A DNA stretch of 64,000 nt from a virus (IMGVR_UViG_3300045988_042533:30905-94904), one strand, 5' to 3'. Positions 7,837 through 63,642 are shown, counted from the stretch's first letter. A program made the numbers and translations. The notes: generated from the sequence alone by a model not told the origin.

Positions 7837-7852
7837 AGCTCCCCCGTAGAAG
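7837..7852 (-). promoter_or_regulatory. GC-rich motif copy (CTTCTACGGGGGAGCT on - strand), 36 nt upstream of ATG 7800
   Basis: + strand reads AGCTCCCCCGTAGAAG. Co-oriented with the downstream gene. Member of the family with 16 or more copies (see findings). Confidence 0.45.
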
Positions 7853-8330
7853 GAATGTATGACATGTTACCTTATTATACCTTACTTGCGAACATCAACA
7901 TTGTCTACATGAGGAGGATTAAATATATAACAACCATTATTATATCTAGCAACAGTAAATGCTTACCTAAATCAAACTTATCTACCTTTTAAATTATACT
8001 TATATTATATCTACTAACCTGACTATAACTTTGATTACTGCCTTCAGTTTAATCCTACAACAACAATAAATCCTATCACCAAAAGTTATCCAAAAATATA
8101 TTTATTTATTATCTCTATTGTTATCATCATTGTTATCATAAACATCAGACATATTACATATTCAATCACTTGCAAATATAGACTTTTATGACATCAAACC
8201 AAAATCCTAATACTCTGATATATACGTCTGTGTGCGCACACAAATCGCTTAATTAGCCTGCTGCTATTTGTTAATCGTCTAACATATAACAAGTTATCAG
8301 ACAAGCCGATATGCAGTCGAAATTATTATA

Positions 8331-8369
8331 AACAAAAACTCCTAGCAACAGTAGAACCATTACTAGGAG
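8331..8369 (-). terminator. Rho-independent terminator after the 714-aa fibre gene
   Basis: - strand: stem CTCCTAG(8369-8363)/CTAGGAG(8345-8339), followed by TTTTTGTTT. Confidence 0.7.
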
Positions 8370-8399
8370 AAACAATTTATATAAACCAATGAAAAAAGT

Positions 8400-10544
8400 T
8401 TATTGAGGAGTATCAGCTTCCATATAACCTTTAGCTTTCAAATCAGCAAGCAAATCATTAAACTTAGTTACAACTTCTTCTGCTGTAGCAGCTGTTGTAA
8501 TATTAACAAGCTTAGGTAGTTGGTCTGCTTTTAACTTACCACCAACAAGGTCTGCTTTAGTACTGATATTAGGTATTTCAGTCTTCTTAGCATAAGCATC
8601 CAATGATTGGTGAGCTGTAAGATAACCCTTATTATCTATTTCAGTTTTAGTATAATAGTTATCTTTCTCACTAGTCCAAACAGGGTCTGTTTCAGTATAT
8701 GAAGTTATAAAATTAGCATCATTGGTAAGTTGCGATACTTTGGTTGGAATAGCAGATGTATCAGCTTTTTCATTAATTATTTGCTGAACACTTTTAATAT
8801 CAGGATTAAGAGTTTCACTATCTCCACTCTTTACTACAAGATTAGTTCCATCATAACCACCGAAACCTTTAAGATAAAGACCATAATTGTCTCTATCCAT
8901 ATCAATACCATTCACTCCATCAAAACCAACACCAAAGATTGATTTAGTATTTGATATATTTTTACCAAGAGATATAGCATAATTTCCACCAGTAGTTGAA
9001 TAAGCACCTAAAGCTAAAGAAGATTTAAAATTTGCTGTTGCCATATAACCAATAGCTACAGGATTATCACCTTTAACTCTTATACCATCTCCAATAGCAA
9101 CAGAGTAATAACCTGCTGACGATTTAATATCATTTCCAATAGTTACACATAGAGTATTTGGAAATATATCATTTCCTAATGCTATATAATCACTAGCACC
9201 AGAAAATATTGAGTTTCCTATTGCTATAGAATTAGTTGCCGTGTCATCAATTGTTATTTTACTTCCTATTGCAATACCATTATCATTAGATGCTATTGTA
9301 TTACATCCTATTGCTATAGAAGCATTTCCAATTGCTGATGCTTCATATCCTACAGATGTAGAAAACCTTGAATATGATTCTGTGTTTATGCCTATTGCAA
9401 TAGAATTATTTTGACTTGCTTTTGAATTATATCCTATTGCAATAGAATTATCTCCTTTTGCTTCTGAATTATATCCTATCGCTGTAGAATAAACTCCTCC
9501 AAGCATCCAATTACCTAGAGTATTAGGATAACTAGAATAATATAATTCATGTGTCAAATCTAATAATTCTTCCGTATTAAAACCATTATAAGTACCTATA
9601 CAGTATGTCTCAATAACTTCTATCCATTTGTTATCAGTTGCATCATATATATATTGAGGAGTTTCATCATCTTCAAGATTGTCATCAACTTCTACATAAG
9701 GAAGATTTACAAAAACATTACTTTCTTCAATATTAAGTTGAGTAAGATTATCAACAATACCAGTTTTTTCATTATCAAGATAAAATATGTGAGTTAAATA
9801 AAGAGGTTCAGATGTTCTAAAAAAGTCACCACTTCTATCTAGTTCAATTTCTTCACCAAGTTCTGCAATCTTAATACTTTTATTAAGATTTTTATCATAT
9901 ATATACTGTGCTTTATCAGGTATTAAATCTCCTCCACTCAAATCAGCATAAACATATTCTTCGTTATTATTTAATTGTAAAATATTAGATTCTATAACAG
10001 GATTTTTATATGGAGCTGCTACTTCACCTGCATCTCCTAATTTAAAACAATAGTTTCGTAAATTATCTAAACGATTATCTACATCTATTATATCAGCTTT
10101 AGTATCAAGTTTTGCTTCTATATAACTTAAATCAACTTCAGGTTTAAATTCACCAACTTTCTCCCAAACACCTTCAACATAAAGATATTCAAGATAAACA
10201 TTATCACCTTGACCATCTTGATTAGGAACAAGATAAATCTTATTAGATTTAATATCAGCAGTAGGAAGTTCTCTAACTATTAAGAACAATGTAGTATCTA
10301 TATTACCAAGTTGTTCAATAGGAACACTACCATTAGAATCAAGACTAGCAACACCATTAGCTTTACCAACAGTGTCCTTAGTCAGCATACTCTCTACAAC
10401 TTTAGAAATGTCAGATTTAACTGAATCAAACTCTTCTTTAGTAATAGAACATAAATCACTGAAAGCTTTATAAATAGTATTACGTTTAGCATTACTTATA
10501 GCAATACTACTAATAGCTTTTCTAAGGTCAATTTTGTTAATCAT
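8400..10544 (-). CDS. Tail fibre with YadA-head-like (Hep_Hag-type) repeats
   Basis: aa ~355-525 carry serial SIAIG/NSIAIG/VAIG 14-residue-type repeats, like trimeric autotransporter adhesin heads. N-terminal fibre motifs GVASLDSNGSVPIEQLG and KIYLVP...YLEYLY..WEKVGEF..EVDL are shared with 16223..17338. Confidence 0.75.
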   Translation of the reverse strand: MINKIDLRKAISSIAISNAKRNTIYKAFSDLCSITKEEFDSVKSDISKVVESMLTKDTVGKANGVASLDSNGSVPIEQLGNIDTTLFLIVRELPTADIKSNKIYLVPNQDGQGDNVYLEYLYVEGVWEKVGEFKPEVDLSYIEAKLDTKADIIDVDNRLDNLRNYCFKLGDAGEVAAPYKNPVIESNILQLNNNEEYVYADLSGGDLIPDKAQYIYDKNLNKSIKIAELGEEIELDRSGDFFRTSEPLYLTHIFYLDNEKTGIVDNLTQLNIEESNVFVNLPYVEVDDNLEDDETPQYIYDATDNKWIEVIETYCIGTYNGFNTEELLDLTHELYYSSYPNTLGNWMLGGVYSTAIGYNSEAKGDNSIAIGYNSKASQNNSIAIGINTESYSRFSTSVGYEASAIGNASIAIGCNTIASNDNGIAIGSKITIDDTATNSIAIGNSIFSGASDYIALGNDIFPNTLCVTIGNDIKSSAGYYSVAIGDGIRVKGDNPVAIGYMATANFKSSLALGAYSTTGGNYAISLGKNISNTKSIFGVGFDGVNGIDMDRDNYGLYLKGFGGYDGTNLVVKSGDSETLNPDIKSVQQIINEKADTSAIPTKVSQLTNDANFITSYTETDPVWTSEKDNYYTKTEIDNKGYLTAHQSLDAYAKKTEIPNISTKADLVGGKLKADQLPKLVNITTAATAEEVVTKFNDLLADLKAKGYMEADTPQ

Positions 10545-10550
10545 AAAAGT

Positions 10551-10871
10551 TTAATTTAATAGTTTATCAATTTGTTTATAATCCCAACCTAACTTATTAG
10601 CAATAGGTTTAAATATCCAACTCCAACTAACAGGTGCTAATATAGCAGAGTTGACTAGAACTTTAATATCAGTTCCAAGAAAATAATAAATAGCAGCTAT
10701 AACTATTATAGAAAATAGTAGAACTATCCTTTTAATAGGAACAACTACATTACCACCTGCAACTTTAATCATAAAGTTTATTATAAGATAAGTCATAATG
10801 TTTACTATAACACAATAAGTAAAATCAAATTGACTTATTAAAGCATTAATTACATTGTTTATAACATCCAT
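10551..10871 (-). CDS. Small membrane protein (about 3 TM segments)
   Basis: Hydrophobic stretches FTYCVIVNIMTYLIINFMI, VLLFSIIVIAAIYYFLG and AILAPVSWSWIF. Overlaps the upstream gene by 13 nt. Confidence 0.55.
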   Translation of the reverse strand: MDVINNVINALISQFDFTYCVIVNIMTYLIINFMIKVAGGNVVVPIKRIVLLFSIIVIAAIYYFLGTDIKVLVNSAILAPVSWSWIFKPIANKLGWDYKQIDKLLN

Positions 10872-11089
10872 AGTTTTATTAAGTTTATATTAATAATAGT
10901 TCCAATAGTAATAATAACACTATATCGAATAACATCTTCAATTTCAAATTTAACTAGTCTATAATGTTTCCATTGATAATATTCTCTAGCAATCATTATA
11001 ACTTCAGCTATAATTCCAATTATAATAGAAGTTATAAGCCAACCTCCAATACCAATATAATCTCTAGTGTTAAGTTTAAATAAATTCAT
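10859..11089 (-). CDS. Small membrane protein (2 TM segments)
   Basis: IGIGGWLITSIIIGIIAEVIMI and VIITIGTIININLI hydrophobic segments. Confidence 0.5.
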   Translation of the reverse strand: MNLFKLNTRDYIGIGGWLITSIIIGIIAEVIMIAREYYQWKHYRLVKFEIEDVIRYSVIITIGTIININLIKLWML

Positions 11090-11336
11090 AACATCAATAT
11101 TAAGTTTATTATAAATAAAAATAGTAGTACTACAAGTATAATGTTGTGTAATACTACTATTCTAATCAATTACTAACCACAAAACATTTTAAGCATTTCT
11201 GAGAGCATTTTATTTATTTACCTTTACTCTTTACCATACGGCAAATTTAAAGCTTTCAGAGCTAATCTGTGAACCTCACAGAGGTTAAATTTCAATGATT
11301 TCAGGCAATCATAATAAACTTACTACTCTTAGAAAA

Positions 11337-11741
11337 TCACTTAAACTTATACCAATTAATTGGAACTCCTTTACGACAAGTATCAGCATACCAACGATTA
11401 AATGCTATACCATCATAACCATCAACATCATCAAGAACATCTTTTATATATTGAGCGAGATAATTTTCGTTAGGAACACTTTTACCTAGATAATCAGCTT
11501 TACACATATTAGCTACAAATACTTTATCATAAAGGACATCGTTATCTAGATGTATATTATATGCTCTAAGAATACTATCAACTTGCTCTTCTGTGTATGG
11601 AGTAATTTTACCATTATCATCTTCCATTTGACCAACAGCAAAATCACAAAGATGTTTATTAAAATGACGACCGTTATATTTAAGATATTCAATCATATCT
11701 TCAGGAAGTTCATCATAAATATCAAGACTATCTTTATACAT
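11337..11741 (-). CDS. Hypothetical protein (134 aa)
   Basis: ORF track. Preceded by the GC-rich motif (31 nt) and a TTTAAACTAAT box (6 nt before the ATG). Confidence 0.6.
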   Translation of the reverse strand: MYKDSLDIYDELPEDMIEYLKYNGRHFNKHLCDFAVGQMEDDNGKITPYTEEQVDSILRAYNIHLDNDVLYDKVFVANMCKADYLGKSVPNENYLAQYIKDVLDDVDGYDGIAFNRWYADTCRKGVPINWYKFK

Positions 11742-11770
11742 AACACAATTAGTTTAAAGATTAATACTAG

Positions 11771-11846
11771 TACCCCCGTAGAAGTATGTTAGATGTAGAT
11801 AAGCTACTAGTAGCATTAGCTTCATAACATCTCTTCTACGGGGGTG
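11771..11846. repeat. Inverted pair of the GC-rich motif forming a ~75-nt imperfect hairpin
   Basis: ACCCCCGTAGAAG(11772-11784)...CTTCTACGGGGGT(11833-11845). Inner pairings are ATGTTA/TAACAT and AAGCTA/TAGCTT. Confidence 0.8.
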
Positions 11847-11851
11847 TTGGT

Positions 11852-12085
11852 TTATCTATAACGACCCATTCTTCTAGGCTCTCTATCATCATCATAATCA
11901 TCACGACGACTTCTATAGTCTCTATCGTCATAATCATAATCTCTCATTCTACCTCTGGAAGTATCTTCTCTAGCTTCTGTAGCAGCTATACATTCTTCTA
12001 GTTCTTCCATATCTTCTTTCATTCTTCTAAGTTTATCTCTCATTTGAGATATACTTTTATGTCCTGTCTGTACCATAATCATCAT
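11852..12085 (-). CDS. Small highly charged R/D/E-rich protein (77 aa)
   Basis: C-terminal half is RDYDYDDRDYRSRRDDYDDDREPRRMGRYR. N-terminal part looks like a coiled coil. Confidence 0.5.
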   Translation of the reverse strand: MMIMVQTGHKSISQMRDKLRRMKEDMEELEECIAATEAREDTSRGRMRDYDYDDRDYRSRRDDYDDDREPRRMGRYR

Positions 12086-12086
12086 A

Positions 12087-12889: not shown

Positions 12890-12904
12890 AACTTTACCTC
12901 CTAT

Positions 12905-13876: not shown

Positions 13877-13934
13877 AAGTCTTAATTTAATTTAGTTAAT
13901 AATGTTACTTGTACTTGCTAGCATTTGTACACTG

Positions 13935-14000: not shown

Positions 14001-14057
14001 TTATTACTATGTTTATTATGAGCAAACTTATAAATATAATTGTTTCTTATTTATTAA

Positions 14058-14396
14058 TTAAATACACATAGGTTCAACGTCTTTATTAAGTAAAGTAGCT
14101 TGTGCTGTAGCTAGTCTATAAACTCTAGATGTAGATATATAATCATAAGCTAGTTTTCTAAGATGTCTTATAGAACCAACATTTCTATTTAGAATTTGAG
14201 CTATAGTAGTAACACTGAAACCTGCATGTATCATTTGTTCAACAACCATAGCCCTAGACATTACTATGTTTTCTTCACGAGATTTACCAAGAATATCCTC
14301 TCTACTTATACTTAGAGTTCCATTAGGAAGTTCAACAGCACAACATTTAACAACGTTGTCTATAACCCTATATATTTCTTTCTCTTTATCATTCAT
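14058..14396 (-). CDS. HTH DNA-binding protein (DnaA domain IV-like)
   Basis: ILGKSREENIVMSRAMVVEQMIHAGFSVTTIAQILNRNVGSIRHL follows the DnaA C-terminal pattern (I..x.R...i..R..a..l.....s...Ia..l.r..stv.h). Confidence 0.45.
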   Translation of the reverse strand: MNDKEKEIYRVIDNVVKCCAVELPNGTLSISREDILGKSREENIVMSRAMVVEQMIHAGFSVTTIAQILNRNVGSIRHLRKLAYDYISTSRVYRLATAQATLLNKDVEPMCI

Positions 14397-14771: not shown

Positions 14772-14784
14772 AATATCAATTATT

Positions 14785-19732: not shown

Positions 19733-19770
19733 AAATACTAGCTCCCCCGTAGAAGAGGTTGCTAGTATTT
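19733..19770 (-). terminator. 10-bp hairpin with the GC-rich motif in its loop, after the 280-aa gene
   Basis: AAATACTAGC (19733-19742) / GCTAGTATTT (19761-19770) is perfect. The loop TCCCCCGTAGAAGAGGTT contains the motif. No clear T-run. Confidence 0.5.
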
Positions 19771-24287: not shown

Positions 24288-25646
24288 TTAATCAAATACT
24301 AAATCGTTAGCATTGAACTTATTATTAGTTGGCTTTGTTATACGCACAGTTCCATTAGTACCTTGTTGTCTGGATTTAAGTTTAAGGACTTTAACTTGAT
24401 TCTCCTTAATTGCCATATCAACAATATCTTTATAAGTACCACCTGTAAACAGAAGCCAATTATTAATCATATTCATTTCCACTTGCTTTTCAAATGGAAG
24501 TTTGTTGAACAACATTTCAGCAGCAGAACTATAAGCATTACCTTCTTCGTCACTAACAGGTCTAGAAACAAAGTTATAAAAGTCATCTAGATTAACTGTT
24601 ACTTTCTGACCATTAACTTCTTTAACGAAAGTTTCAGGAAGAGAATATTGACCAATAGTTCTACCTTTAATCAAATTGTTTATATAGTTATAATATTTAT
24701 TAGCACTCTCAATTTCAGCTTCTTCTTGAGCTTTAGCTTGCTGAGCCATTTGCTCACGAACTTGTTTATCTTTCTCTTGAAGAGCTTCAAGACAACTTTT
24801 AGCTTCATCATAAAGAGCACCACTATCTTTAAGATATTTAATATAATTCTCATTAACAGACTTATTACCAAACTCTTGAGCTGCCATAAGAATTATATTC
24901 TGCTGTTGAACTTCATTATCTTTATCAAGCTCAACTCCACTTCTATCAGGAACTTCACCAAAACCTTTAGCATTACCATGTATAGTAATATAATCAATAA
25001 ATGACTTAACTAGAGGATTATCATTATAAATTCTAGTATAAGCAGCTTGTTCAGCCTCAGCATAAGAATTAGCAATTACATCACTAACATAAGCTTTTAT
25101 TCCATTAACATCATCTGTATATTCAATAGGATTACCATCTTCTCCTGTTATCTCAAGACCAACAGCTTTCTGAATATTAGCAAGGTTAAGTTCTGTATCA
25201 TCACCCTCTTCAACTTCAAGAGATTTAATCCAATCTTGAACATCAGCGGCAGCTTTAAATACATTGTTGTTTGCATCAACCAAATCACCGTTTTCAGCAA
25301 CAGTATAAACTTGACCATCAAATTCAACTTGAGAACCAACTTCTAGCTCCCCCGTAGAAGTATCTTGGTTGCCATTATCTCCATGCTGTTGTTGACCTTG
25401 TTGTTGTTGACCTTGGTTGCCATTATCACCACCATTGTTATCACCATTATTGTTATTATCTGGCTGACTAACTGGAGGATTTGTTGGAGGAGGTGTAGGC
25501 TGATTGTTATTCTGAGCATTAATATCAGCAGCTCCATTATTACCTCCGTTAATATCGGGAGCATTCATAGGATTCTTATCATTTGGTGCAGCTTGACCAC
25601 CATTATTAGAAGGTTGCTGATTTGTACCATCAAAATCTATCTCCAT
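24288..25646 (-). CDS. Scaffold-like / internal head protein (452 aa)
   Basis: Q/N/G/P-rich disordered N-terminus, then a coiled-coil stretch (QEKDKQVREQMAQQAKAQEEAEIES). Sits between portal and MCP. Confidence 0.4.
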   Translation of the reverse strand: MEIDFDGTNQQPSNNGGQAAPNDKNPMNAPDINGGNNGAADINAQNNNQPTPPPTNPPVSQPDNNNNGDNNGGDNGNQGQQQQGQQQHGDNGNQDTSTGELEVGSQVEFDGQVYTVAENGDLVDANNNVFKAAADVQDWIKSLEVEEGDDTELNLANIQKAVGLEITGEDGNPIEYTDDVNGIKAYVSDVIANSYAEAEQAAYTRIYNDNPLVKSFIDYITIHGNAKGFGEVPDRSGVELDKDNEVQQQNIILMAAQEFGNKSVNENYIKYLKDSGALYDEAKSCLEALQEKDKQVREQMAQQAKAQEEAEIESANKYYNYINNLIKGRTIGQYSLPETFVKEVNGQKVTVNLDDFYNFVSRPVSDEEGNAYSSAAEMLFNKLPFEKQVEMNMINNWLLFTGGTYKDIVDMAIKENQVKVLKLKSRQQGTNGTVRITKPTNNKFNANDLVFD

Positions 25647-30820: not shown

Positions 30821-31180
30821 CTACAATATACTTATAATAAACAAAATGATAGATGCTGCACCAGCAACACCTATCACATTTCTTTGTTTAGTAACTTTAT
30901 TAACCTTAGTTTTAAGTTGAACTATAGTTTTATCATTATCAGCTATAATGCAACTATCATTATGAACTATATTTCTAAGAACCTTATTAGCTTCTTTTTC
31001 ATATTTAAGTTCCACTAATTTACCATTTACTATACGTAAATCATCAATAGAAACACTAACTGAATCTTGATTAACTAGCTCCCCCGTAGAAGATATGTAT
31101 TGATTACTCCCTGATAAGTCTATAGAACAACTTAACAGTACTATCATCGTCAAGTGTTTTAACTTCAATAACTTTCGCAT
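30821..31180 (-). CDS. Lipoprotein with C-terminal TM anchor (unimolecular-spanin-like architecture)
   Basis: Signal plus lipobox MIVLLSC, and C-terminal TM VIGVAGAASIILFIISIL. Overlaps the upstream gene by 77 nt in another frame. Carries the GC-rich motif in frame (SSTGEL). Confidence 0.5.
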   Translation of the reverse strand: MRKLLKLKHLTMIVLLSCSIDLSGSNQYISSTGELVNQDSVSVSIDDLRIVNGKLVELKYEKEANKVLRNIVHNDSCIIADNDKTIVQLKTKVNKVTKQRNVIGVAGAASIILFIISIL

Positions 31181-34106: not shown

Positions 34107-34685
34107 TTACTTATCTAGCTCCCCCGTAGAAGAAGTATGGATGAATGTCAAATTACTACTACTACGTTCACTTTTTAGCCTATCATTAACTCTAAATCTA
34201 TGTCCATGAATATAACTATTAGGAACTACTTTAAAACTAACAAAGCAAGCTTTATCTTGAATCAAAATACTATCTTTATAAATAGTAGGGTTCTCATTAA
34301 CAATAGCAAGGAAATAATTAATATCCAAAACATTGTCTTCTCCAGCTACAGTTTGACTAATAGCTATATCACTACCTGTCATAATAAGTTTATCTCCAAG
34401 ATGAAGACCTGCTACAAACTCCTTAGCACTAGTACCTACTGCTGTTTTAATAAACAAAGGAATACACATACTAGTTCCATTATTCTTCTTTTTAGCATTT
34501 GAAATAATAACAGAAGGAGTTTCTTTACAAACAAGAGCAATCAGAGAATAATTAGGAGCTACTAGAATAGAAGTAGTTTTGTCAACTAAATACTCAAGAG
34601 GAATCTCACTAAGTTTAGTAGGAAGATTGTATTCTAACTCTACATTCTTACCTGTAACATCTTTGCTAAGTTTAAATTTAATCAT
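34107..34685 (-). CDS. Hypothetical protein, first gene of the leftward arm (192 aa)
   Basis: ORF track. The C-terminal residues SSTGELDK are encoded by the GC-rich motif at 34117-34132. Confidence 0.6.
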   Translation of the reverse strand: MIKFKLSKDVTGKNVELEYNLPTKLSEIPLEYLVDKTTSILVAPNYSLIALVCKETPSVIISNAKKKNNGTSMCIPLFIKTAVGTSAKEFVAGLHLGDKLIMTGSDIAISQTVAGEDNVLDINYFLAIVNENPTIYKDSILIQDKACFVSFKVVPNSYIHGHRFRVNDRLKSERSSSNLTFIHTSSTGELDK

Positions 34686-35460: not shown

Positions 35461-35567
35461 AGCTCCCCCGTAGAAGAAATGTATGATGAATAAACTCTTG
35501 CTAGTTATAATTAGTTATACTAGTCAAAGAGTGAATTATATCATAATCCCTTCTACGGGGGAGTTAG
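35461..35567. repeat. Inverted pair of the GC-rich motif (~105-nt imperfect hairpin) at the divergence point
   Basis: CTCCCCCGTAGAAG (35463-35476) / CTTCTACGGGGGAG (35550-35563). Inner pairings are TATGAT/ATCATA, ACTCTT/AAGAGT and CTAGT/ACTAG. Confidence 0.8.
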
Positions 35568-40566: not shown

Positions 40567-40584
40567 CTTCTACGGGGGAGTTAG
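40567..40584 (+). promoter_or_regulatory. GC-rich motif copy (CTTCTACGGGGGAGTTAG), 65 nt upstream of ATG 40650
   Basis: Co-oriented with the rightward genes. Follows a 9-bp hairpin (40480-40488/40526-40534). Confidence 0.4.
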
Positions 40585-40649: not shown

Positions 40650-40955
40650 ATGGCAAAGAAACATGATGAAAGTAAGGATTTGTTTAGAGTATCTAAAGTT
40701 TGTGGTATTGACTATAACGACAAACTCATAAGAGTTCGTGACAAATCTAGAATTGGTATCAAAACATGGGGAAGAATTGATTTTCTTGTTCATTATTGTA
40801 ACTGGCGTTGTATATATGATAGAACAGCTGCAATAAGTGATAGGTCTGATGAATCTAATAAGAGTTATAGAGAAATCAAGAAAGAAAATAAACAACGTAA
40901 GTTAACTGATAAACGTGATGGAAATAAGAGGTCTAAAGCTAAAGCTCAAGGTTAA
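40650..40955 (+). CDS. Basic small protein (101 aa), possibly nucleic-acid binding
   Basis: K/R-rich C-terminal third (KKENKQRKLTDKRDGNKRSKAKAQG). Confidence 0.5.
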   Translation: MAKKHDESKDLFRVSKVCGIDYNDKLIRVRDKSRIGIKTWGRIDFLVHYCNWRCIYDRTAAISDRSDESNKSYREIKKENKQRKLTDKRDGNKRSKAKAQG

Positions 40956-41427
40956 TAAACCTAAAGCTAAACCTAAACGTTTAAATAGTAAAACTAGCAC
41001 CCCCGTAGAAGAATGTTATAAGCGTGTATCTCTACTTGTTGTTGGTACTGTTGTTTATAAAGATAATTCTTATTATGCTCATATATCTAAAGATGATTTA
41101 GATGGTAGATTATATCCTAATTCTACTATACCTATTGAAATCAAAGATTATGAGATTCCTTTTACTGATGATAGTTACAATCTTAGATATAGAAATGTTA
41201 TATTTGAACGTGGTAAAAAGCTTGTATGTTATATATTAAGTTTGTTTACTGCTTCGATTAATAGTTCTTATTCTGATAGATATGTACCTTTTAGTCCTAA
41301 TTGGTATATAATTGGAAATATTGTAAGTAATGGTACTAAACTTAAATTTGAATTTAAACGTTTAGGTAATCGAATTGATATTAATGAAAGAATTAAAAAA
41401 GATGATATAAATGATTATGAAGAATGA
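40915..41427 (+). CDS. Hypothetical protein (170 aa)
   Basis: ORF track. 41-nt overlap with the previous ORF. Carries an antisense copy of the GC-rich motif (STPVEEC). Confidence 0.5.
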   Translation: MMEIRGLKLKLKVNKPKAKPKRLNSKTSTPVEECYKRVSLLVVGTVVYKDNSYYAHISKDDLDGRLYPNSTIPIEIKDYEIPFTDDSYNLRYRNVIFERGKKLVCYILSLFTASINSSYSDRYVPFSPNWYIIGNIVSNGTKLKFEFKRLGNRIDINERIKKDDINDYEE

Positions 41428-43631: not shown

Positions 43632-44169
43632 TAAGTGTCCTCTTAGGATGTTCAATAATAAGTGTTATAATCTACAACCTGTAGGTAATCCTCTGTATGG
43701 AAATGCTATTGTAGTTCCTAATGTAGATTATAACGCTTATAAGAACAAAGGAATGAGTTTTAGTAAGTATGTAGAAGTGATTAAAGACATAATATCTTCT
43801 ACGGGGGAGCTAGATGATTATTATGTTATTCCTCTTATACGTTGCAGACTTGCTAAAGAATGTCCTATAAATAGTGAAATATTAACTAATTGTTCTGCTT
43901 ATTTTGTTAGAGAAATAGCAAAATATAAACTTAGACATGTAATGCTTCTTGGTGATGCTGCTAAGTTTTGGCTTAACATAGATAATATAGGTTCTTATAC
44001 AGATTCTGTTATATGTGATTCTAAAACTAGAACTATATATAATGTTTCTTACTCTCCTTTTGTTAAATACATAGATGATAACAAATTTGAAGATTTCAAA
44101 GGTCATCTAATTAAATGGTATAATAGTATTAAAACAGGTATTTATGATTATGATATTATTAATATATGA
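43621..44169 (+). CDS. Uracil-DNA glycosylase family-4-like protein with divergent catalytic motifs
   Basis: Order CSKCPL ... GNAIVVPNVD ... YVIPLIRCRL ... CSAYFVREI...HVMLLGDAA ... VSYSPF parallels the family-4 UDG order CxxCxL / GExPG / N.vkCRP / C..fl / LG..A / HPS. GExPG and HPS themselves are replaced. Lies adjacent to the DNA polymerase. Confidence 0.5.
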   Translation: MSCSKCPLRMFNNKCYNLQPVGNPLYGNAIVVPNVDYNAYKNKGMSFSKYVEVIKDIISSTGELDDYYVIPLIRCRLAKECPINSEILTNCSAYFVREIAKYKLRHVMLLGDAAKFWLNIDNIGSYTDSVICDSKTRTIYNVSYSPFVKYIDDNKFEDFKGHLIKWYNSIKTGIYDYDIINI

Positions 44170-46451: not shown

Positions 46452-47861
46452 ATGATTGAAACAGAACTATTTAATGTTGCTGTTAATCAATGGAGAGATA
46501 AAAAAGGTATTGGTACTATGATTTGTCCTAAACCTCTTGATTGTTCTATTCCTTTGATAACAGTATTATCAAATGTACTAACTCGTAGTCCTACTGCTAA
46601 TATATTAATATTAGTAGATGGATTTACTGATAGACTTGAAGTTGTTAATAAGTTTAAAGAATTAAACGATAAAGGAGAAACACTTCTTCTTTCTAAGTTT
46701 AATGATAAACATATTTCTATTTATAGTCAAGATTATAATGATGGTCATGAAAGACAAACTAATGTTTTTCTAACTATATGTTATAAAACTAATACTATAA
46801 GTGAAAGTACTTATACAACTTTATATCTTAGTAGATTTAAACTTGTTATTATAGATAAAGTTTTAGATAATAAATCTATGACTTATTTATCTAAAGTTTG
46901 TCCTACTCTTGATACATTTAGACAACAAGAACTCGATGCAGTTCGCATTAACACCCCCGTAGAAGAATTATTGATACCTTTACGTCTTGATTCTGACTCT
47001 GAAGATGCTAAACTTCTAGATAAATATAACAAAGAAATTTCTACATCTATAAATATATTTGGAAGTTTCGATGTTATGAATGAAGCAAGAATAGGTAATA
47101 GTAAAACTAATACTTCTGCTTTGGATGTATGTAATCGAATTGCTAAAGATAATGGTTGGGATTTAAATCTTGATATGAGTATTGAACTTAATCGTGAAAT
47201 TGATAAGTATTATAATCCAATCGCTATTAATGATAGAGCTTCTAAAACATTTGAATTAATTCGTCTTAGAAGTAATCTTCTTAGTGATAACAACATAAAA
47301 CTTAAAGAAATTAATGATATAGTTGAAGAAAATAAAGATAAGAAAATTCTAATCATTAATAAACGTGGAGAATTTGCTTCTGATGTAACTAACTATCTTA
47401 ATACACTTAATGATAAAGATATATGCGGAAATTATCATGATAAAGTTGAAAACGTTATAGCTATAGATGATAACGGTAATATTATTTATTATAAAAGTGG
47501 TGCTAAGAAAGGACTTCCTAAATATTTAGGTGTTACAAGTCAAAAGAAACAATCTCAACGTAATTTCAATCTTAACAAGATTAATGTACTATCTACTTCT
47601 AATTCTCCTGATAAAGATTTAGATATTGATGTAGATGTTGTCATTATAACAAGTCCTTTGTGTGAGGATATACGTTCTTATTTGTATCGTATGAGCAATC
47701 TAAACGTGTCTAATCCATTGAAACTATATACCTTATATATAAAGGGTACTATGGAAGAAAAACGTATAGAAGAAAGAAAATATGATAGATATAGAACTGT
47801 GTCTACAAAAGAAATTGATGTTGATATTGAAAATAATGATGATTGTGTTGTTGTAGATTAA
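46452..47861 (+). CDS. Replication-module protein, possibly a degenerate SF2 helicase-like ATPase (469 aa)
   Basis: No clean Walker A. LVIIDKV (motif II-like) and KINVLSTSNSPDKDLDIDVDVVIITSP (helicase-C-like) are suggestive only. Confidence 0.3.
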   Translation: MIETELFNVAVNQWRDKKGIGTMICPKPLDCSIPLITVLSNVLTRSPTANILILVDGFTDRLEVVNKFKELNDKGETLLLSKFNDKHISIYSQDYNDGHERQTNVFLTICYKTNTISESTYTTLYLSRFKLVIIDKVLDNKSMTYLSKVCPTLDTFRQQELDAVRINTPVEELLIPLRLDSDSEDAKLLDKYNKEISTSINIFGSFDVMNEARIGNSKTNTSALDVCNRIAKDNGWDLNLDMSIELNREIDKYYNPIAINDRASKTFELIRLRSNLLSDNNIKLKEINDIVEENKDKKILIINKRGEFASDVTNYLNTLNDKDICGNYHDKVENVIAIDDNGNIIYYKSGAKKGLPKYLGVTSQKKQSQRNFNLNKINVLSTSNSPDKDLDIDVDVVIITSPLCEDIRSYLYRMSNLNVSNPLKLYTLYIKGTMEEKRIEERKYDRYRTVSTKEIDVDIENNDDCVVVD

Positions 47862-50864: not shown

Positions 50865-52091
50865 ATGTATAAAAGAACTCCTAATACGTCTAAACTAACT
50901 AAAGCTTTTATTGAATCTAAAATATCTCAAGAAGCTATAGTTAGTAAATATCTTAATATACCTATGGAAGTTGTTCAAGATTGTATCAATCATGGACATC
51001 TAATCAAATCTGTATTTCGTGATGATGATTATAATAAATCTATGGGTATTATATATAACAGAAAAGGAAGACTTAAAGTTCGAGATTTTGGTGGTTTTGG
51101 ATTTTTTGATGATGTATATGGAGTTGTAGCTTATGTATTATCTAATATTTATGATAGACCTATAAGTACTGACAATAAGCAAGATTTTTATTTTGTTCTT
51201 AAACATATAGCTAGTACTTTTTCTGATAATATTGAAGGTAAAGTTATTGATGAAAATGTTGATGAAGATATTGTCAAAGCTTTATCTAAAGGAAGAAGTA
51301 AGAAAGCTATAATAGAAATTGTTCCTAGACCTTGGAATCAACAAGATAAAGCTTATTGGAACTCTATTGGTATTAATCTCAATTTTCTTAATGCTAATTT
51401 TGTTATTCCTGTAGACCAATATTATATTAATCGTGTAACTAATTCAGACCCTAAATATCATTATAAAGAGTCTGACCCTTGTTATGCTTATATGCTTGGT
51501 CAAAATAAGCAAGGTATATATCTGATTAAACTTTATTTTCCTTATAGAGATAGAAGTAAAGAACTTAAATTTATTACTAATTGTAATGTACTTGAAGGAC
51601 TGCCTAATCTTGAAAGAAATGATTATGATTATATTATTATAACTAAATCAAGTAAAGATAGATTAAGTATAGGAAGTCATTTATCATCAACATTCTTCTA
51701 CGGGGGAGCTGGTGATAAACTTCATATAGGTGTCATAAATCTTCCTAGTGAAAATTATAAACTTAAAACTAATGAATATGAGTGGTTAAAGAATAAACTT
51801 AATAAAAATGGTCTTATTGTAAGTCTATTAGATTTTGATACTACAGGTAGATGTGGTGCTAAATATCTATACGATAATTATAATATACCTTATATCTTTA
51901 TTACTAGAGGTGAATTTGGTTTATATAATTATGGTGGTAAAGATTTTAGTGATTTACATAAATGTTATAGTATTAAACAACTTAATCAATTTATTAATGA
52001 AACGATAACCTATGCGGAAATCAAATTTAAAGCTGAAAATAGTCAAGTTTCCTATATGCAGAGACTATCAGAGTTTAATTTGCCGTACTAA
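50865..52091 (+). CDS. Putative primase / Toprim-like replication protein (408 aa)
   Basis: YIIITKSSKDRLSIG and LLDFDTTGRCG (DxD-type) are reminiscent of Toprim. No zinc finger seen. Position in the replication module. Confidence 0.3.
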   Translation: MYKRTPNTSKLTKAFIESKISQEAIVSKYLNIPMEVVQDCINHGHLIKSVFRDDDYNKSMGIIYNRKGRLKVRDFGGFGFFDDVYGVVAYVLSNIYDRPISTDNKQDFYFVLKHIASTFSDNIEGKVIDENVDEDIVKALSKGRSKKAIIEIVPRPWNQQDKAYWNSIGINLNFLNANFVIPVDQYYINRVTNSDPKYHYKESDPCYAYMLGQNKQGIYLIKLYFPYRDRSKELKFITNCNVLEGLPNLERNDYDYIIITKSSKDRLSIGSHLSSTFFYGGAGDKLHIGVINLPSENYKLKTNEYEWLKNKLNKNGLIVSLLDFDTTGRCGAKYLYDNYNIPYIFITRGEFGLYNYGGKDFSDLHKCYSIKQLNQFINETITYAEIKFKAENSQVSYMQRLSEFNLPY

Positions 52092-54108: not shown

Positions 54109-54468
54109 ATGAATTTAGCAGCTTATGATAAAATAGATAATAATATTAATCAATCTAATTCTTGGATTGATGTTAAAAGAAGAAAACTAGTGACTAAATG
54201 TCTTCCAAAAAGAAGATATTATTGTATAAGTAAAAGATATGATGATGAAGTCAACATTAATAGATATTTTCTTATTACTTTTGATGATAAACCTACTGAT
54301 AGAAAAGTAAGAATAACAGATGTTGATACTTATGGAAGACAAAGATTTACACTTGGTGATATATGGAATCAAACTATTCTACAATATGCTACATCTGATG
54401 TTTGTGTTCATCTTAATACAGAAGTGACTGCTGATGATGGGGACATATATGAGATTGAGCTTAACTAA
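54109..54468 (+). CDS. Hypothetical protein (119 aa)
   Basis: ORF track. Confidence 0.55.
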   Translation: MNLAAYDKIDNNINQSNSWIDVKRRKLVTKCLPKRRYYCISKRYDDEVNINRYFLITFDDKPTDRKVRITDVDTYGRQRFTLGDIWNQTILQYATSDVCVHLNTEVTADDGDIYEIELN

Positions 54469-54520
54469 CACCCTCGTAGAAGAATGTTGATTGTTTGAAA
54501 ATGGCATGGTTTCTAGCTCA

Positions 54521-54636: not shown

Positions 54637-56061
54637 ATGAAAAAGGCTATTAAAAAAGTAGGTGCTGAACCTAAAATTAAAAGAAAATTTTATAGAAACG
54701 AAGGATTTCATGTTGGAGTTCATCGTGATGAATGGGGATTATTTGATTCTAAACGTAATCCTTATTGTTTTGTTAATGGTTATTTCTTTACTTATGGAAA
54801 ATGGTTTATTCGTAATCATACTACTTTAGAAGATATTAAAAACTCTTGGGATGATTATTTTTATAATGGTAATATTTATAATGCTTGTTTTGGTATAATA
54901 GATAGAAAACGTAAGATTGCTGTTATTAAGGATGGTAATTATTATTCTTATTATTTAGAACATGCTGTTCCTGATAACTATACTATTTTACATGTTAACG
55001 AAATAAGAGATTTTGATATAACAAAACATCTTCATAAACTTTATACTGAACATTGTAAATATCTTATAGATAGATTTGTTAACCTTAACAGTGATTATTA
55101 TCATGTTGTAAATAATAATAGAGCTAAAGTTATATTTAAATCTAACTATCTTCAAGACCAAATAGATGATGTTGTATACAAACTTGAAAAAGTATCATCT
55201 GAACATAATATATCTAGAACAAAAGATTTATTTGCAGGTAAAGAGCATTTCCTAAATGTAAGTAAAGGCTGGACATCTAAATATATCAAAGTAAAACATC
55301 CTACAATTAATCAGATAATTACAAATACTGTTTTTACTGATGAACAAAAAGCTTATATTGAAAAATGTAAGCTTTACAGTGAATATCGTAGTAATGGTAT
55401 TGTTTGGAAAGATATTCTTACTAAAAGTAAGAAGGAGATTGTAGATAAAGTAGAACAAAAAGAAAGTGAATTTGATGTACGTTGGTCTAAAGCTATTGAA
55501 AGAGGTAAAGAAAATAGAGCAAAAGCTATAAAAGAAGCTAATTCTGAACAAACTCTAGAACAGTTTAGAAATGGTCATATACTTAATAATTATGTTACAT
55601 ATAAGTTCCCCCGTAGAGGACGTAACTTTAGTATACATTGGATGGATGAAATGACTAGAGCTAAATGTTTCAAAAATATTCAACTTAGACTGAATACTAC
55701 AAACAATATTATTACTACAAGTAATAATGCTTCTGTTGACTTATCACAAGCTATTACTCTATTTAATGTTTTGTATGATAAATATTTTAGTCATTATGAT
55801 TATACTAATACTGATGACTACTTTATTGATTTTACAAAAAGAAATATAAAGATAAACTATTATAATCTAAGACATATTTGTTTTACTGAAAAGAAAACTG
55901 ATAATGGTGAAAGATTAGGTTATATGGAATGGAAAATACAAATAGGATGTCATGCTCTTTGGCTTGATGATATTAAAGAATTTTGTAGATATTATCATCT
56001 TGAAGATAGAGTGCATTTTGATTGTAGTGCTAGAAATATTAATCAATTAACTAATAAATAA
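54637..56061 (+). CDS. Hypothetical protein (474 aa)
   Basis: ORF track. No motif assigned. The C-terminal WKIQIGCH...DDIKEF loosely resembles the C-terminus of 58084..58920. Confidence 0.6.
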   Translation: MKKAIKKVGAEPKIKRKFYRNEGFHVGVHRDEWGLFDSKRNPYCFVNGYFFTYGKWFIRNHTTLEDIKNSWDDYFYNGNIYNACFGIIDRKRKIAVIKDGNYYSYYLEHAVPDNYTILHVNEIRDFDITKHLHKLYTEHCKYLIDRFVNLNSDYYHVVNNNRAKVIFKSNYLQDQIDDVVYKLEKVSSEHNISRTKDLFAGKEHFLNVSKGWTSKYIKVKHPTINQIITNTVFTDEQKAYIEKCKLYSEYRSNGIVWKDILTKSKKEIVDKVEQKESEFDVRWSKAIERGKENRAKAIKEANSEQTLEQFRNGHILNNYVTYKFPRRGRNFSIHWMDEMTRAKCFKNIQLRLNTTNNIITTSNNASVDLSQAITLFNVLYDKYFSHYDYTNTDDYFIDFTKRNIKINYYNLRHICFTEKKTDNGERLGYMEWKIQIGCHALWLDDIKEFCRYYHLEDRVHFDCSARNINQLTNK

Positions 56062-56067: not shown

Positions 56068-56763
56068 ATGGCTAGAAATAGAAAACCTAAAGAATCTGTT
56101 CAAATTCCTATTAAAGATAGAAAGTTAACAGATTGTGTTGATGAAAGTCTTGTAGATGAAAATGTATTATCATTTAGAGCTATTCAAGATAAACTTGTTA
56201 ATATCTATGCTAAGAAGAATCATGATTATGGTGATAGTTTCAATCAAGGTTGTAATGAACTTGGTGTAGGTTATGCTTTTAGTAGAATATTCGATAAAAC
56301 TAAAAGATTTCAAACTCTTGCTAAAGGTATTATGACTAATTCTCTTAGTATAGAAGTACAAGATGAAACTGTTGAAGATACTATTATGGATTTAGCTAAC
56401 TATTGTGTAATGTATCTTGCATGGAGGGATAAACATATTCATGTAGGAGAAGCAGAAGCTAAACATTTTTCTATAATAGAAGGAAGAGATAATCAAGTTG
56501 ATATAAAACATCCTTCTACGGGGGAGCTAGAATCTAATAATAATACTAATACTTATTATCATAAATTACATGATGAACTTTTTACTAATAAAGTTATATT
56601 ACTTCAAGTAGATAGTAGGAAAGATTGTACTAATCGAGTAACAAGTAAATACGGTTTTGATTTATTTAGAGATGAAAATGATTATGTTTACATCAAAAGT
56701 GTTACTGGTGAACTTATAGATGTAACTATTGATGGTGAATATGTTATATGTATTATACAATAA
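56068..56763 (+). CDS. DUF1599-like (all-alpha, MazG-related) N-terminal domain protein with an extra C-terminal domain
   Basis: KKNHDYGDSF...GYAFSRIFDKTKRF...VEDTIMDLANYCVMY follows the K.xDYG / R..DK..R / D...DL.NY pattern. The GC-rich motif (PSTGEL) sits at the domain junction (aa ~150). Confidence 0.5.
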   Translation: MARNRKPKESVQIPIKDRKLTDCVDESLVDENVLSFRAIQDKLVNIYAKKNHDYGDSFNQGCNELGVGYAFSRIFDKTKRFQTLAKGIMTNSLSIEVQDETVEDTIMDLANYCVMYLAWRDKHIHVGEAEAKHFSIIEGRDNQVDIKHPSTGELESNNNTNTYYHKLHDELFTNKVILLQVDSRKDCTNRVTSKYGFDLFRDENDYVYIKSVTGELIDVTIDGEYVICIIQ

Positions 56764-62129: not shown

Positions 62130-62171
62130 AATCCTCCACAAGTCAAATAATAATGGCTTGTAGAGGATTTT
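62130..62171 (+). terminator. 13-bp imperfect hairpin after 61837..62112
   Basis: AATCCTCCACAAG / CTTGTAGAGGATT (one mismatch), followed by TT then an A-run. Confidence 0.4.
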
Positions 62172-62190
62172 AAAAAATAAAATAACTGAT

Positions 62191-63246
62191 ATGAGTAAAT
62201 ATAATGTTAACGGTTTACCTTGGAGAAGTGGTCTAGGTAAAGATGTAACTATGTGTGAAACTTCTGCTGAAGTTAATAAAACTGCTGGTCTAGATTGGAC
62301 TGTAGATAAATGTCCTCTAGTAGCTAAAATGCCTTTTGGAATAGGTCGTAATAACGAAATAGATGAAGATGCTTTTGCACATAATGGTAAAATATATCGT
62401 GATTGTCCTAAAGCTTTTGCTACTTATAGAACAGATATTAATGAACCTCTAGGTATAGTTAAATCTCAATATGAAATAGTTCAAAACGCTGATGCTTTTA
62501 ACTTCTTTGATGAAGCTATAGGTGAAGGTGGAGCTACTTGGGATAGAGCAGGTTATTTTGGTTATGGTAATAAAGTATTTGTAACAGCTAAATTAAATAT
62601 TAATACTGATGTTGAAGGTGACAAAATCAATAATTATTTGGTGTTTAGTAACAGTCATGATGGTAGTGGTTCTGTTAACATTCTTCTATCTCCTATTCGT
62701 GTTATATGTACAAATATGCTCAATGGTGCTTTGATGAAGAATGATTGTTATATTAGACTTAGACATACTAAGACTGTTAAAGAAAGACTTGAAATAGGAA
62801 CACAAGTTCTTAAAGTTGCTTGTGAAAGAGCAAGAAGTGCTCAAGAACTATATAGAGAAATGTCTAAGATTAAACTTGATGATGGTGCTGTTATAAAGTA
62901 TCTAGCAGATATTAATCTTAACGATGAAGAACAAGAAAAGTTAATGTCTTATGATTCTAAACATGGATATAATAGATTAGTTAATAAAGAATATAGATGT
63001 CTTGAATCTACAGGAATAAGTACTCGTAAAGCTAATATAATATCTGGAATGTATGAATATTATAATGATGGTATTGGTCAAAAAGATATATATGGAAATG
63101 GTTGGGGAGCTTATAATGCAGTTACAGGTTTTTACTCTAATGTTGCTAATCTTGAAGGTGAAAAGCGTATGGAATCTCTTATTTGGGGTTCTGCTAATAA
63201 CAATATGCTCAAAGCCGCAAATGAAGTAATGAAGTTAGCTATATGA
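62191..63246 (+). CDS. DUF932/DUF945-like phage/plasmid protein
   Basis: LGIVKSQYEIVQNADAFNFFDE ... YLVFSNSHDGSGSVNILLSPIRVICTNML matches the family core (LG.V...Y..vqN...f / nshDGs.s / iRvvC.N). Confidence 0.65.
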   Translation: MSKYNVNGLPWRSGLGKDVTMCETSAEVNKTAGLDWTVDKCPLVAKMPFGIGRNNEIDEDAFAHNGKIYRDCPKAFATYRTDINEPLGIVKSQYEIVQNADAFNFFDEAIGEGGATWDRAGYFGYGNKVFVTAKLNINTDVEGDKINNYLVFSNSHDGSGSVNILLSPIRVICTNMLNGALMKNDCYIRLRHTKTVKERLEIGTQVLKVACERARSAQELYREMSKIKLDDGAVIKYLADINLNDEEQEKLMSYDSKHGYNRLVNKEYRCLESTGISTRKANIISGMYEYYNDGIGQKDIYGNGWGAYNAVTGFYSNVANLEGEKRMESLIWGSANNNMLKAANEVMKLAI

Positions 63247-63491
63247 TGAATATTATTAAAACTCAATATAATCTTGGTGACGAAGTATATGTTATAGATT
63301 TTTCTAGAGGACAAGTTGCTAAAGGTTATGTTTCTAGAAAACTAATACAAATAATATCTGATGAAGAAACGTATGTTTTTCTAGATATTGAAGATGTTAA
63401 TTCTAATCCTATTGTTCAACAAGTTAATGAAAACTTTGTTTTTAAAACTAAAGATGAACTTAAAGAATGGGTTGAACATATAGTTGACTAG
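63243..63491 (+). CDS. Hypothetical protein (82 aa), last gene of the rightward arm in this window
   Basis: ORF track. ATGA overlap with the previous gene. Confidence 0.5.
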   Translation: MMNIIKTQYNLGDEVYVIDFSRGQVAKGYVSRKLIQIISDEETYVFLDIEDVNSNPIVQQVNENFVFKTKDELKEWVEHIVD

Positions 63492-63516
63492 CTAACTATC
63501 TATACTAGTAATACTA

Positions 63517-63642
63517 ACACCCCCGTAGAAGAGATATTGATGACTATAACTCCTACTACTATTTATATTAATGTTAATGTTTAAAGTGATACTAAAGCCG
63601 ACAAAGGAGATTATAACATCAAACATCTCTCTACGGGGGAAC
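63517..63642. repeat. Inverted pair of the GC-rich motif (~125-nt imperfect hairpin) closing the rightward arm
   Basis: ACCCCCGTAGAAGAGAT..TTGATG (63519-) pairs with CATCAAACATCTCTCTACGGGGGA (-63640). The right copy is degenerate. Confidence 0.7.

Follow-up and report, generated by a model that had tools for sequence, protein, structure and literature searches.

The 64,000-nucleotide (nt) stretch of viral DNA analyzed here (IMGVR_UViG_3300045988_042533:30905-94904, hereafter the window) carries a short GC-rich element, built around the 12-nt core CTTCTACGGGGG, that recurs at 19 sites and represents an ancient, strongly selected, asymmetric cis-element. Comparison with related genomes indicates that its recognizer is almost certainly encoded by the phage itself. 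We tentatively favor the possibility that the phage's own RNA polymerase recognizes the element as a promoter and uses it in both directions. A more doubtful possibility, to which we also give serious consideration, is that it is no conventional promoter and would instead be a signal needed on both strands, at regular intervals of ~4 kb and in strict alternation, that is read by a phage-encoded machine.

The window derives from a crAss-like phage of the family Intestiviridae, order Crassvirales. Its capsid module has ~75% nucleotide identity to the crAss-like phages cr271_1, ctcc615, cr8_1, and cr3_1, all of which are classified in the Intestiviridae subfamily Obtuvirinae. For the major capsid protein, identity is 83% to the cr271_1 protein and 65% to the proteins of crAss002 and p-crAssphage. 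A search with a 206-amino-acid (aa) gene located window genes also on a 94.8-kb contig of a public assembly. The initial annotation, which had been made from the sequence of the window, took it for a crAss-like phage and pointed out that such phages are reported to package a virion RNA polymerase; the analysis supports a crAss-like phage that encodes a giant virion RNA polymerase. In the annotation of six related complete genomes, giant two-barrel virion polymerase genes are the only type of RNA polymerase found; no T7-like single-subunit RNA polymerase is annotated in those six genomes, and the open reading frames (ORFs) of the window were only partly scanned against Pfam. For all comparisons of the element described below, the six genomes are the window, cr271_1, ctcc615, cr8_1, crAss002, and the prototype, p-crAssphage (BK010471).

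The core occurs in 16 exact copies in the window, as compared with none in 100 dinucleotide-preserving shuffles. When up to two mismatches are allowed, 19 copies are observed against a shuffle mean of 0.33, with the relaxed search adding exactly three degenerate copies (54471, 55608, and 63628). These are the same 16 exact and three degenerate copies that were originally noted, with every coordinate and strand reproduced. The A+T content, which had been judged by eye to be ~70%, is computed to be ~70-75% (G+C is 25-35% along the whole length), and the original expectation that such a 12-mer should arise by chance far less than once per 64 kb agrees with its absence in exact form from all 100 shuffles.

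Alignment of the 19 copies in the orientation of the motif reveals an element of ~27 nt, with ~19 strongly constrained positions, in which an upstream stretch free of G is followed by CTTCTACGGGGG and then by WGYTAGT. A position table places the strongest conservation downstream, in GGGGG-(A/T)G(C/T)TAGT, where the G-run occupies positions 8-12 and conservation extends out to position +19. Upstream conservation is weak, consisting of A-rich positions from -6 to -4, T at -2/-1, and a near absence of G from -11 to -1. Thus, the extended conservation of ~25 nt that had been proposed holds for its downstream part, and its upstream CATACAT is a tendency only. A division into a sense subclass ending in AGCTAG and an antisense subclass ending in TGTTAG is also a tendency restricted to the window, which fails in cr271_1 and ctcc615. 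Comparison of the window with Rfam covariance models yielded no matches at the gathering score, and no tRNAs were detected.

The element is asymmetric, and no internal dyad symmetry is present in the 19-copy alignment. This bears on two alternatives. Repeats of the repetitive extragenic palindromic or bacterial interspersed mosaic element type were rejected as an identity for the element, as the unit is not palindromic and ~65% of copies reside within ORFs. The second alternative, raised in the initial annotation, is that the copies are operator or activator sites through which a small phage regulator, such as the helix-turn-helix (HTH) protein encoded at 14058..14396, acts on the host RNA polymerase. 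The copies are dispersed and conserved, and some are close to gene starts, as might be expected of such sites. However, an asymmetric 27-mer lacking a dyad is unlike the operators of HTH dimers, no host-type -33/-7 element keeps a constant spacing to it, promoters of the host type are located elsewhere, and most copies fall within ORFs. We therefore consider an operator function highly improbable.

Each of the five other Intestiviridae genomes examined carries 16-31 copies of a lineage-specific variant of the element, and a generalized core, YYTYYAYGGGG, is present 16-31 times per genome in all six, as compared with ~0.3 expected. The copies within a genome share one variant, and the variants differ between genera: CTTCTACGGGGGAGCTAG in the window and cr271_1 (the latter having ~14 exact and several degenerate copies of the window's sequence); YTTCTACGGGGGAGGTCG in ctcc615, where YTTCTACGGGGG is followed by AGGTCG or AGCTA; CTTTTACGGGG(G/C)GGCTAGAG, preceded by CATAC, in cr8_1 (26 matches at up to two mismatches); CCYYTAYGGGGGAA, which can be written CT-CCYYTAYGGGGG-AA, in crAss002 (28 copies), a phage cultured on Bacteroides xylanisolvens; and CCTCYACGGGGRGT in p-crAssphage, in which 31 copies of CCATCCTCYACGGGGRGT follow the pattern tCCAT-CCTC(T/C)ACGGGG(A/G)GT. 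The check in related phages that had been suggested at the outset therefore reveals a motif that is kept in both sequence and position and that drifts lineage by lineage. Such variants are the pattern expected from a cis-site co-evolving with a phage-encoded recognizer, and it is because the recognizer co-evolves with the phage lineage that we take it almost certainly to be a phage product.

The exact 14-mer CTTCTACGGGGGAG appears several times in each of many ~90-kb contigs in IMG/VR. Cellular genomes were scanned with the 18-mer CTTCTACGGGGGAGCTAG rather than with the short core, because the scan needed at least 14 specified bases; among 185,579 bacterial and archaeal genomes it returned five matches, none of them in a Bacteroidales record, and four of the five sit on contigs of 61-94 kb. 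Exact matches occur in contigs from metagenome-assembled genomes labeled Bacilli, Acholeplasmatales, and Coprovivens (JAFRAK010000011.1, 93.8 kb, and contigs of 79 kb and 61 kb), which are probably mis-binned genomes of crAss-like phages. The near-absence of the 18-mer from bacterial and archaeal genomes argues that it is not a host chromosomal signal.

Protein alignments reveal that all six genomes share copies at matching locations in the pre-capsid, primase, and SNF2-type helicase genes. A further copy, in the small gene just ahead of the terminase gene, is likewise common to all six, and the copy in the uracil-DNA glycosylase gene and several intergenic sites are common within Obtuvirinae. 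The pre-capsid copy (degenerate in cr8_1) is encoded as SSTG(E/G) in a hypervariable, low-complexity linker, the primase copy as (F/L/P)(F/L)YGG, and the helicase copy, which is antisense, occupies the same codons throughout as (T/S/L/R)P(V/I)(E/K)E. Orthologous copies each carry the DNA variant of their own lineage. In the cr8_1 helicase, glutamate is replaced by lysine to fit CTTTTAC, such that the peptide reads PVKE, and this tracking of the DNA variant by a residue argues that selection acts on the DNA (or RNA) sequence and not on the peptide. A protein-level motif (SSTGE, TPVEE) was accordingly rejected, given that intergenic copies and copies on both strands share the DNA sequence and that residues change to follow it.

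The conservation of these positions also bears on the possibility that the element is selfish, being either a solo end of a miniature inverted-repeat transposable element (MITE) or a GC-cluster like those of yeast mitochondria, and that it spreads through AT-rich phage genomes. It does form a GC-rich island within DNA of 70-75% A+T, and GC-rich hairpin modules are appended to some copies. Moreover, lineage-specific copies, such as those in the DNA polymerases of p-crAssphage and crAss002, reside in variable loops or in insertions relative to homologues. Set against this, at least five positions are orthologous in six genomes from three subfamilies with capsid identity down to ~65%; the single copy lacks terminal inverted repeats, with no target-site duplications seen around the window's copies; and a selfish spreader would not be expected to leave copies that alternate in an ordered way and are evenly spaced. 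In a 93%-identical relative that covers ~36 kb of the window, furthermore, all 13 covered copies align unbroken (six copies are uncovered), with a mismatch of 5.9% in the motif and 7.4% in the flanks, a difference that does not resolve the two. Alignment breaks at motif sites are attributed to the hypervariable flanks and are not taken as recombination breakpoints. A mobile element, which the initial annotation had listed among its alternatives, is thus disfavored, and we regard it as very improbable.

We return to the possibility that the element is a promoter for the phage's own RNA polymerase, to which its length, asymmetry, G-run, and lineage-specific drift point. Here we infer, as most likely, both that the phage polymerase is the recognizer and that recognition leads to initiation. 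Under this proposal, the giant virion-type RNA polymerase would recognize a self-contained promoter of ~27 bp and initiate in or beside the G-run. From sense copies, mRNAs would begin 24-71 nt before start codons or within upstream genes, whereas antisense copies would either give rise to convergent or antisense transcripts or stand in the way of oncoming polymerases. Transcription start points would then occur on both strands of the genome roughly every 4 kb. Of the 139 copies in the six genomes, 48 are non-coding, as compared with ~10% of the DNA, which amounts to a 3-4-fold enrichment. Across genomes, sense intergenic copies are typically found ~20-40 nt before an ATG (median ~35), with longer distances where a GC-rich hairpin has been inserted; for the window, the distances given below are counted from the G-run to the ATG. 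The usual order of a pair along the mRNA is stop codon, antisense copy, sense copy, and ATG.

Several observations, some on the layout of the copies and others on transcription in related phages, weigh against a promoter function. The members of a promoter set would be expected to share the orientation of the genes and to be largely intergenic. Sense copies make up ~55-60% and antisense copies ~40-45% of the total across the six genomes, and ~65% of copies are within ORFs, including 3-6 in the giant polymerase genes. Neighboring copies are inverted far more often than expected by chance, with 96 inverted and 37 direct pairs in the pooled data and with 27 inverted and no direct pairs among neighbors within 1 kb. 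The pooled counts include many orthologous sites and hence lack phylogenetic independence; permutation of a runs test yields P values of 0.0007 for crAss002, 0.0014 for cr8_1, 0.018 for p-crAssphage, and 0.056 for cr271_1. Once close pairs had been merged, the copies proved to be spaced more evenly than at random, at a mean interval of ~3.7-4 kb (P=0.0002 for p-crAssphage and P=0.006 for cr8_1). The pre-capsid copy lies 1.1 kb from the next start codon, with no in-frame ATG after it. To our knowledge, no known phage promoter set exhibits alternating orientation together with even spacing. Hence, the set of phage promoters that was originally proposed is upheld in its asymmetric, non-random signal, its distances to start codons, and its conservation, and is contradicted by the antisense and in-ORF share, the alternation, and the even spacing.

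Promoters of the type used by the host are also present. Matches to the Bacteroidetes-type promoter TTG-N17-21-TAnnTTTG number 19 in the window, as compared with 8.2 in shuffles, and include 25668-25697(-), 50804-50833(+), 47851-47880(+), 13935(-), 34763(-), and 39184(+). Host-type matches are found 29-78 nt upstream of, and co-oriented with, the pre-capsid, RecT, primase, and other genes. The GC-rich element contains neither the TTG nor the TAnnTTTG block, and the host-type sites lie apart from its copies; the element would thus be unneeded for expression of the pre-capsid, RecT, and primase genes. Among crAss-like phages, phi14:2 is the one for which a transcription map exists (Drobysheva et al., bioRxiv 10.1101/2020.03.07.982082). 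Transcripts made by its virion polymerase share no common upstream motif, and its middle and late genes have host-type promoters and are transcribed by the host polymerase (bioRxiv 10.1101/2020.03.07.982082). The four upstream regions named for the middle genes are host-type promoters without similarity to the element, and an equivalence of the element to the middle promoter of phi14:2 was rejected on this basis. The genome of phi14:2 (Steigviridae) contains no copy of the generalized core and no comparable dispersed repeat, and cr1_1 (Suoliviridae) contains no dispersed GC-rich motif.

The alternation and regular spacing of the copies would be accommodated more readily by a DNA-level signal that is not transcriptional and is read by a replication, recombination, or nuclease machine of phage or host. 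Examples include sites for single-strand initiation or priming that alternate between strands, polar roadblocks, and Chi-like sites that tame exonucleases at the ends of a terminally redundant, permuted genome. Such a signal would work best with regularly spaced sites in both orientations, and neighbors do alternate and are spaced more evenly than random; in addition, copies within ORFs are tolerated and conserved in either orientation. In some lineages, mini-hairpins of the GCGAAGC type, a kind found at single-strand origins, follow the motif. The genome of crAss002 has been reported, in a review of crAss-like phages, to be terminally redundant and circularly permuted. On the other hand, known Chi and primase recognition sites span 3-8 nt and not ~20-27 nt, the 18-mer is no feature of host genomes, and neither the sense bias near start codons nor the intergenic enrichment is predicted. 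A purely DNA-level role is therefore unlikely in our estimation, albeit deserving of real weight.

With respect to the alternating signal introduced above as a second and more doubtful reading, one possibility is that the copies are start or anchor points for the ejected virion polymerase, on a circularly permuted genome in which the end that enters first is not fixed. Strand-alternating priming sites or end-protection sites are further possibilities. On this account, analogous signals, unrelated in sequence, would exist in other crAss families (Crevaviridae; crAss001).

The placement of intergenic copies, which in either orientation are often 3-40 nt past a stop codon, suggests another function, that of transcription punctuation. 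The element would then stop or insulate against the promiscuous virion polymerase (or the host polymerase) in a polar, sequence-specific manner, with copies on both strands to limit read-through and antisense transcription. Close pairs are always inverted, as they would be for a bidirectional terminator, and the copies at 35465(-) and 40567(+), the first co-directional copies on each side, bound a region of 35.6-40.5 kb that is free of the motif. A terminator scan of positions 1-20000, where four of the 19 copies are located, flagged three (7841, 11833, and 19744) as a hairpin followed by a T-run. For copies elsewhere in the window, inspection by eye finds mostly no T-run downstream, and these do not qualify as intrinsic terminators. 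Single copies, moreover, fold weakly (-4.6 to -6.8 kcal/mol, with z above -1.5) and most have no U-tract, and the sense copies that are kept in the primase, uracil-DNA glycosylase, and giant polymerase genes would truncate transcripts. Punctuation is accordingly a rather improbable function for the element.

Folding of the copies as RNA bears on two further ideas. For eight copies folded singly, energies range from -4.6 to -12.7 kcal/mol, and for seven of the eight the z value is above -1.5. A hairpin of RNA or DNA formed by the single copy was rejected as the functional form, given this weak folding and a stem that is not conserved across lineages (cr8_1 being an example). The inverted pair at 11773/11833 folds at -35.4 kcal/mol (z = -5.85). 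In the window, 11773-11844 comprises inverted copies and a central palindrome, GCTACTAGTAGC, which together make a stem-loop of ~70 nt between two minus-strand genes and could be a site of processing or termination. The second idea is that opposite copies on one transcript form stems for processing or protection of the RNase III type, like the flanks of rRNA precursors. Alternation is exactly what such pairing requires, the pair at 11773/11833 and the inversion of all 27 neighbor pairs within 1 kb are in keeping with it, and a need for complementarity would maintain the identity of copies within a genome. By contrast, most copies have their nearest partner kilobases away and are in translated ORFs, where ribosomes would unwind long-range stems; neighbors in p-crAssphage often differ in variant (T/C, GG/AG), which would create mismatches; and the back-to-back pair at the divergence point described below would not share a transcript. 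Pairing between copies consequently strikes us as quite improbable.

Many copies in p-crAssphage and crAss002 have a GC-rich module only a few bases downstream, even within ORFs; it comprises AGCGGA, a short hairpin (loop GAA, GTA, or GAAA; frequently GCGAAGC), and GGAGCGG. Such GC-rich modules are located at 6022, 28077, 28173, 44953, 58727, 93667, and 95865 in p-crAssphage and at 4210, 47840, 86211, and 89648 in crAss002, and may either extend the element or have been inserted separately. The copies followed by stable GC-rich hairpins in these two genomes are mostly sense, and the hairpins could serve as 5′ stabilizing stem-loops.

Within the window, six of the 19 copies are antisense to local genes (11833, 41000, 46954, 54471, 55608, and 63520), and ~9 of the 19 are within real ORFs. 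Four copies had been placed 20-36 nt upstream of the ATGs at 7800, 11741, 19719, and 34086 and in the same orientation; the co-orientation stands, and the actual spacing is 24-40 nt (40, 31, 24, and 34 nt, respectively). The first of these sense copies (7841..7852, minus strand) precedes a 225-aa gene (7123..7800), with orthologues that precede the homologous gene at 31982 in cr271_1 and 37725 in cr8_1. The second (11773..11784, minus) is one arm of the back-to-back arrangement whose other arm is an antisense copy (11833..11844, plus) located 8 nt past the stop codon of the minus-strand gene 11852..12085. The third (19744..19755, minus), 24 nt past the upstream stop codon, has a local hairpin of -12.7 kcal/mol and orthologues at 20443 in cr271_1 and 47677 in cr8_1. 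The fourth (34121..34132, minus) occupies the final codons of gene 34107..34685 and has an orthologue at 3522 in cr271_1.

Two other sense copies on the minus strand are within genes. The copy at 25349..25360 lies in the pre-capsid gene (24288..25646), where it encodes TSTGE in the low-complexity linker. The first ~100 residues of this 452-aa protein, encoded by 25361-25646 on the minus strand, are rich in N, G, D, and Q, of low complexity, and hypervariable between relatives; the low-complexity region ends at the motif-encoded peptide, and the conserved domain begins right after. The copy at 31081..31092 is in the small gene preceding the large terminase gene, and its orthologues (cr271_1 7007, ctcc615 48019, cr8_1 58987, crAss002 4210, and p-crAssphage 91287) occur at a relative position of 0.23-0.30.

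A back-to-back pair, formed by a leftward copy (35465..35476, minus) and a rightward copy (35550..35561, plus), marks the divergence point of two gene arms. As first described, the pair sits where the gene orientation switches, and GC skew switches there as well: the skew changes sign at ~35 kb, where the genes switch from the minus to the plus strand. The two copies point outward, with a small ORF after each, a layout that fits promoters, and p-crAssphage exhibits the same arrangement at its own divergence point, 95745(-)/95865(+). Adjacent to the divergence point in the window, positions 35600-40500 form ~5 kb of small ORFs devoid of the motif, which may be an early region with a different mode of transcription.

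On the plus-strand arm, the sense copy at 40567..40578 (plus) is 71 nt before the ATG at 40650, in agreement with the 65-72 nt first given, and an antisense copy at 41000..41011 (minus), 45 nt past the stop codon of gene 40650..40955, brackets that gene together with it. Farther along, a sense copy in the uracil-DNA glycosylase gene (43796..43807, plus) encodes SSTGE and is orthologous in cr271_1, ctcc615, and cr8_1; an antisense copy (46954..46965, minus) resides in the SNF2-type helicase gene, whose coding strand there reads TPVEE; and a sense copy in the primase gene (51695..51706, plus) encodes FFYGG and is orthologous in all six genomes. A degenerate antisense copy, CTTCTACGAGGG (54471..54482, minus), is 3 nt past the stop codon of gene 54109..54468, with counterparts at 74323 in cr271_1, 22567 in ctcc615, and 86689 in cr8_1. 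Another degenerate antisense copy, CCTCTACGGGGG (55608..55619, minus), is within gene 54637..56061, and a sense copy (56513..56524, plus) is within gene 56068..56763. The last two copies are partners, an antisense copy (63520..63531, minus) located 29 nt past the stop codon of gene 63243..63491 and the degenerate sense copy TCTCTACGGGGG (63628..63639, plus). An opposite-copy pair is likewise found at this locus in cr271_1, ctcc615, and cr8_1.

Other repeats were observed in crAss-like phages outside Intestiviridae. The Crevaviridae phage cr127_1 has a different GC-rich repeat of ~35 nt, TAATGGCCACAAGGGCGAGAGGTGTTCCGAAAT, in 10 copies that occur in both orientations and include three close inverted pairs (e.g., 11356(+), 11912(-), 28698(-), 28871(+), 42040(-), and 42232(+)); its center, CCACAAGGGCGAG, loosely resembles the p-crAssphage variant CCACGGGGAG. 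In crAss001, CTTCTGGAG is present 27 times, as compared with ~0.4 expected, mostly within genes and usually with TATTA ~8-10 nt upstream (e.g., 1580(+), 6485(-), 8022(-), and 8664(+)). Its orientation alternates (runs test, P=0.005), and plus-strand copies are never adjacent. The genome of cr1_1, which lacks a dispersed GC-rich motif, contains an annotated RNA polymerase sigma factor gene (39317-39883), a hint that transcription is directed differently in different crAss families.

Intestiviridae include p-crAssphage, which has been reported to be the most abundant human gut virus and has only just been cultured. The element provides a concrete handle on the organization of transcription and replication in these phages: it is sharply defined, family-wide, and kept within essential genes at a cost to protein sequence, and it predicts the sites at which to look for transcript ends, polymerase binding, nicks, and priming. 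Its lineage variants are a candidate specificity code for the giant virion polymerase, and the motif could help to classify crAss-like contigs as a marker in the genome sequence. A functional role for the alternating and even layout, if confirmed, would point to a mode of genome organization not described for any phage. Literature searches by topic and by literal sequence (the latter covering the motifs of the window, p-crAssphage, cr8_1, crAss001, and cr127_1), with subscription journals outside their reach, found no description of the motif. It is not mentioned in a crAss review, a preprint on p-crAssphage as a phage-plasmid, the crAss001 transcriptome (RNA-seq) paper, or the Gut Phage Biobank paper, and term searches of the crAss001 paper and of the p-crAssphage preprint, which includes metatranscriptome data, turned up no transcript-start or motif data.

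Among known systems, the promoters of the T7/T3/SP6 class and of P23-45 share with the element a length of ~20-27 bp, asymmetry, high conservation, many copies per genome, lineage-by-lineage drift, a G-run at the presumed start, and the presence of some copies within upstream genes. The element likewise has the form of a T7-type promoter, a conserved, asymmetric sequence of ~23 bp that ends at the initiating G-run; in size and shape it is similar to the promoters of single-polypeptide phage polymerases, and its G-run stands at the usual initiation site of phage polymerases. T7-type promoters are all co-oriented with genes, whereas ~40-45% of the copies of the element are antisense and the set is alternating and evenly spaced. 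The likeness to T7 promoters that had been noted (CTAC followed by GGGGGAG, as compared with TATA followed by GGGAGA) amounts to a resemblance only, as no T7-type polymerase is annotated in the relatives. In P23-45, conserved sequence motifs do serve as promoters for two-barrel polymerases, relatives of the crAss enzyme, which shows that polymerases of this type can recognize a promoter by its sequence.

A virion-delivered polymerase is also a feature of N4, and the element can be drawn in the form of the N4 promoters, with a pyrimidine tract, TAC, and a G tract making a short stem with a 3-nt loop. The promoters of the N4 virion polymerase are DNA hairpins with a stem of 5-7 bp and a 3-nt loop, and three of them are co-oriented at one genome end. 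The stem of the element, in contrast, needs G-U/G-T wobble pairs, is weak (-4.6 to -6.8 kcal/mol; z of -0.3 to -1.5), and is broken in half of the cr8_1 copies (GGGGC), and the element comprises 20-30 dispersed sites. The PeSL repeats of T4-type phages, which combine an early promoter for host sigma-70 with a stem-loop, are intergenic and co-oriented and mark hyperplastic regions. They resemble the element as repeated modules of promoter and hairpin that flank genes, given the GC-rich hairpin that often follows the motif in p-crAssphage and crAss002, but the element is conserved in core genes and alternates in orientation.

Chi and single-strand initiation (ssi) sites are, like the element, G-rich, orientation-dependent, dispersed DNA signals, and a layout in two orientations suits a permuted linear genome; ssiA and ssiB of RSF1010 are on opposite strands. 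Chi sites differ in being 5-8 nt long and enriched in the host chromosome, from which the 18-mer of the element is absent, and ssi sites are structured hairpins at one origin and not 20-30 sites. The promoters of phi14:2 and 'genus VI' share with the element a conserved motif upstream of structural genes, with a minority of coding or antisense copies, but are of the host type (TTG ... TAnnTTTG) and are used by the sigma-containing host polymerase (bioRxiv 10.1101/2020.03.07.982082). The element is thus of a known general kind, a phage-specific dispersed signal, with a layout unlike that of any described family of promoters, terminators, Chi sites, repetitive extragenic palindromes, or MITEs.

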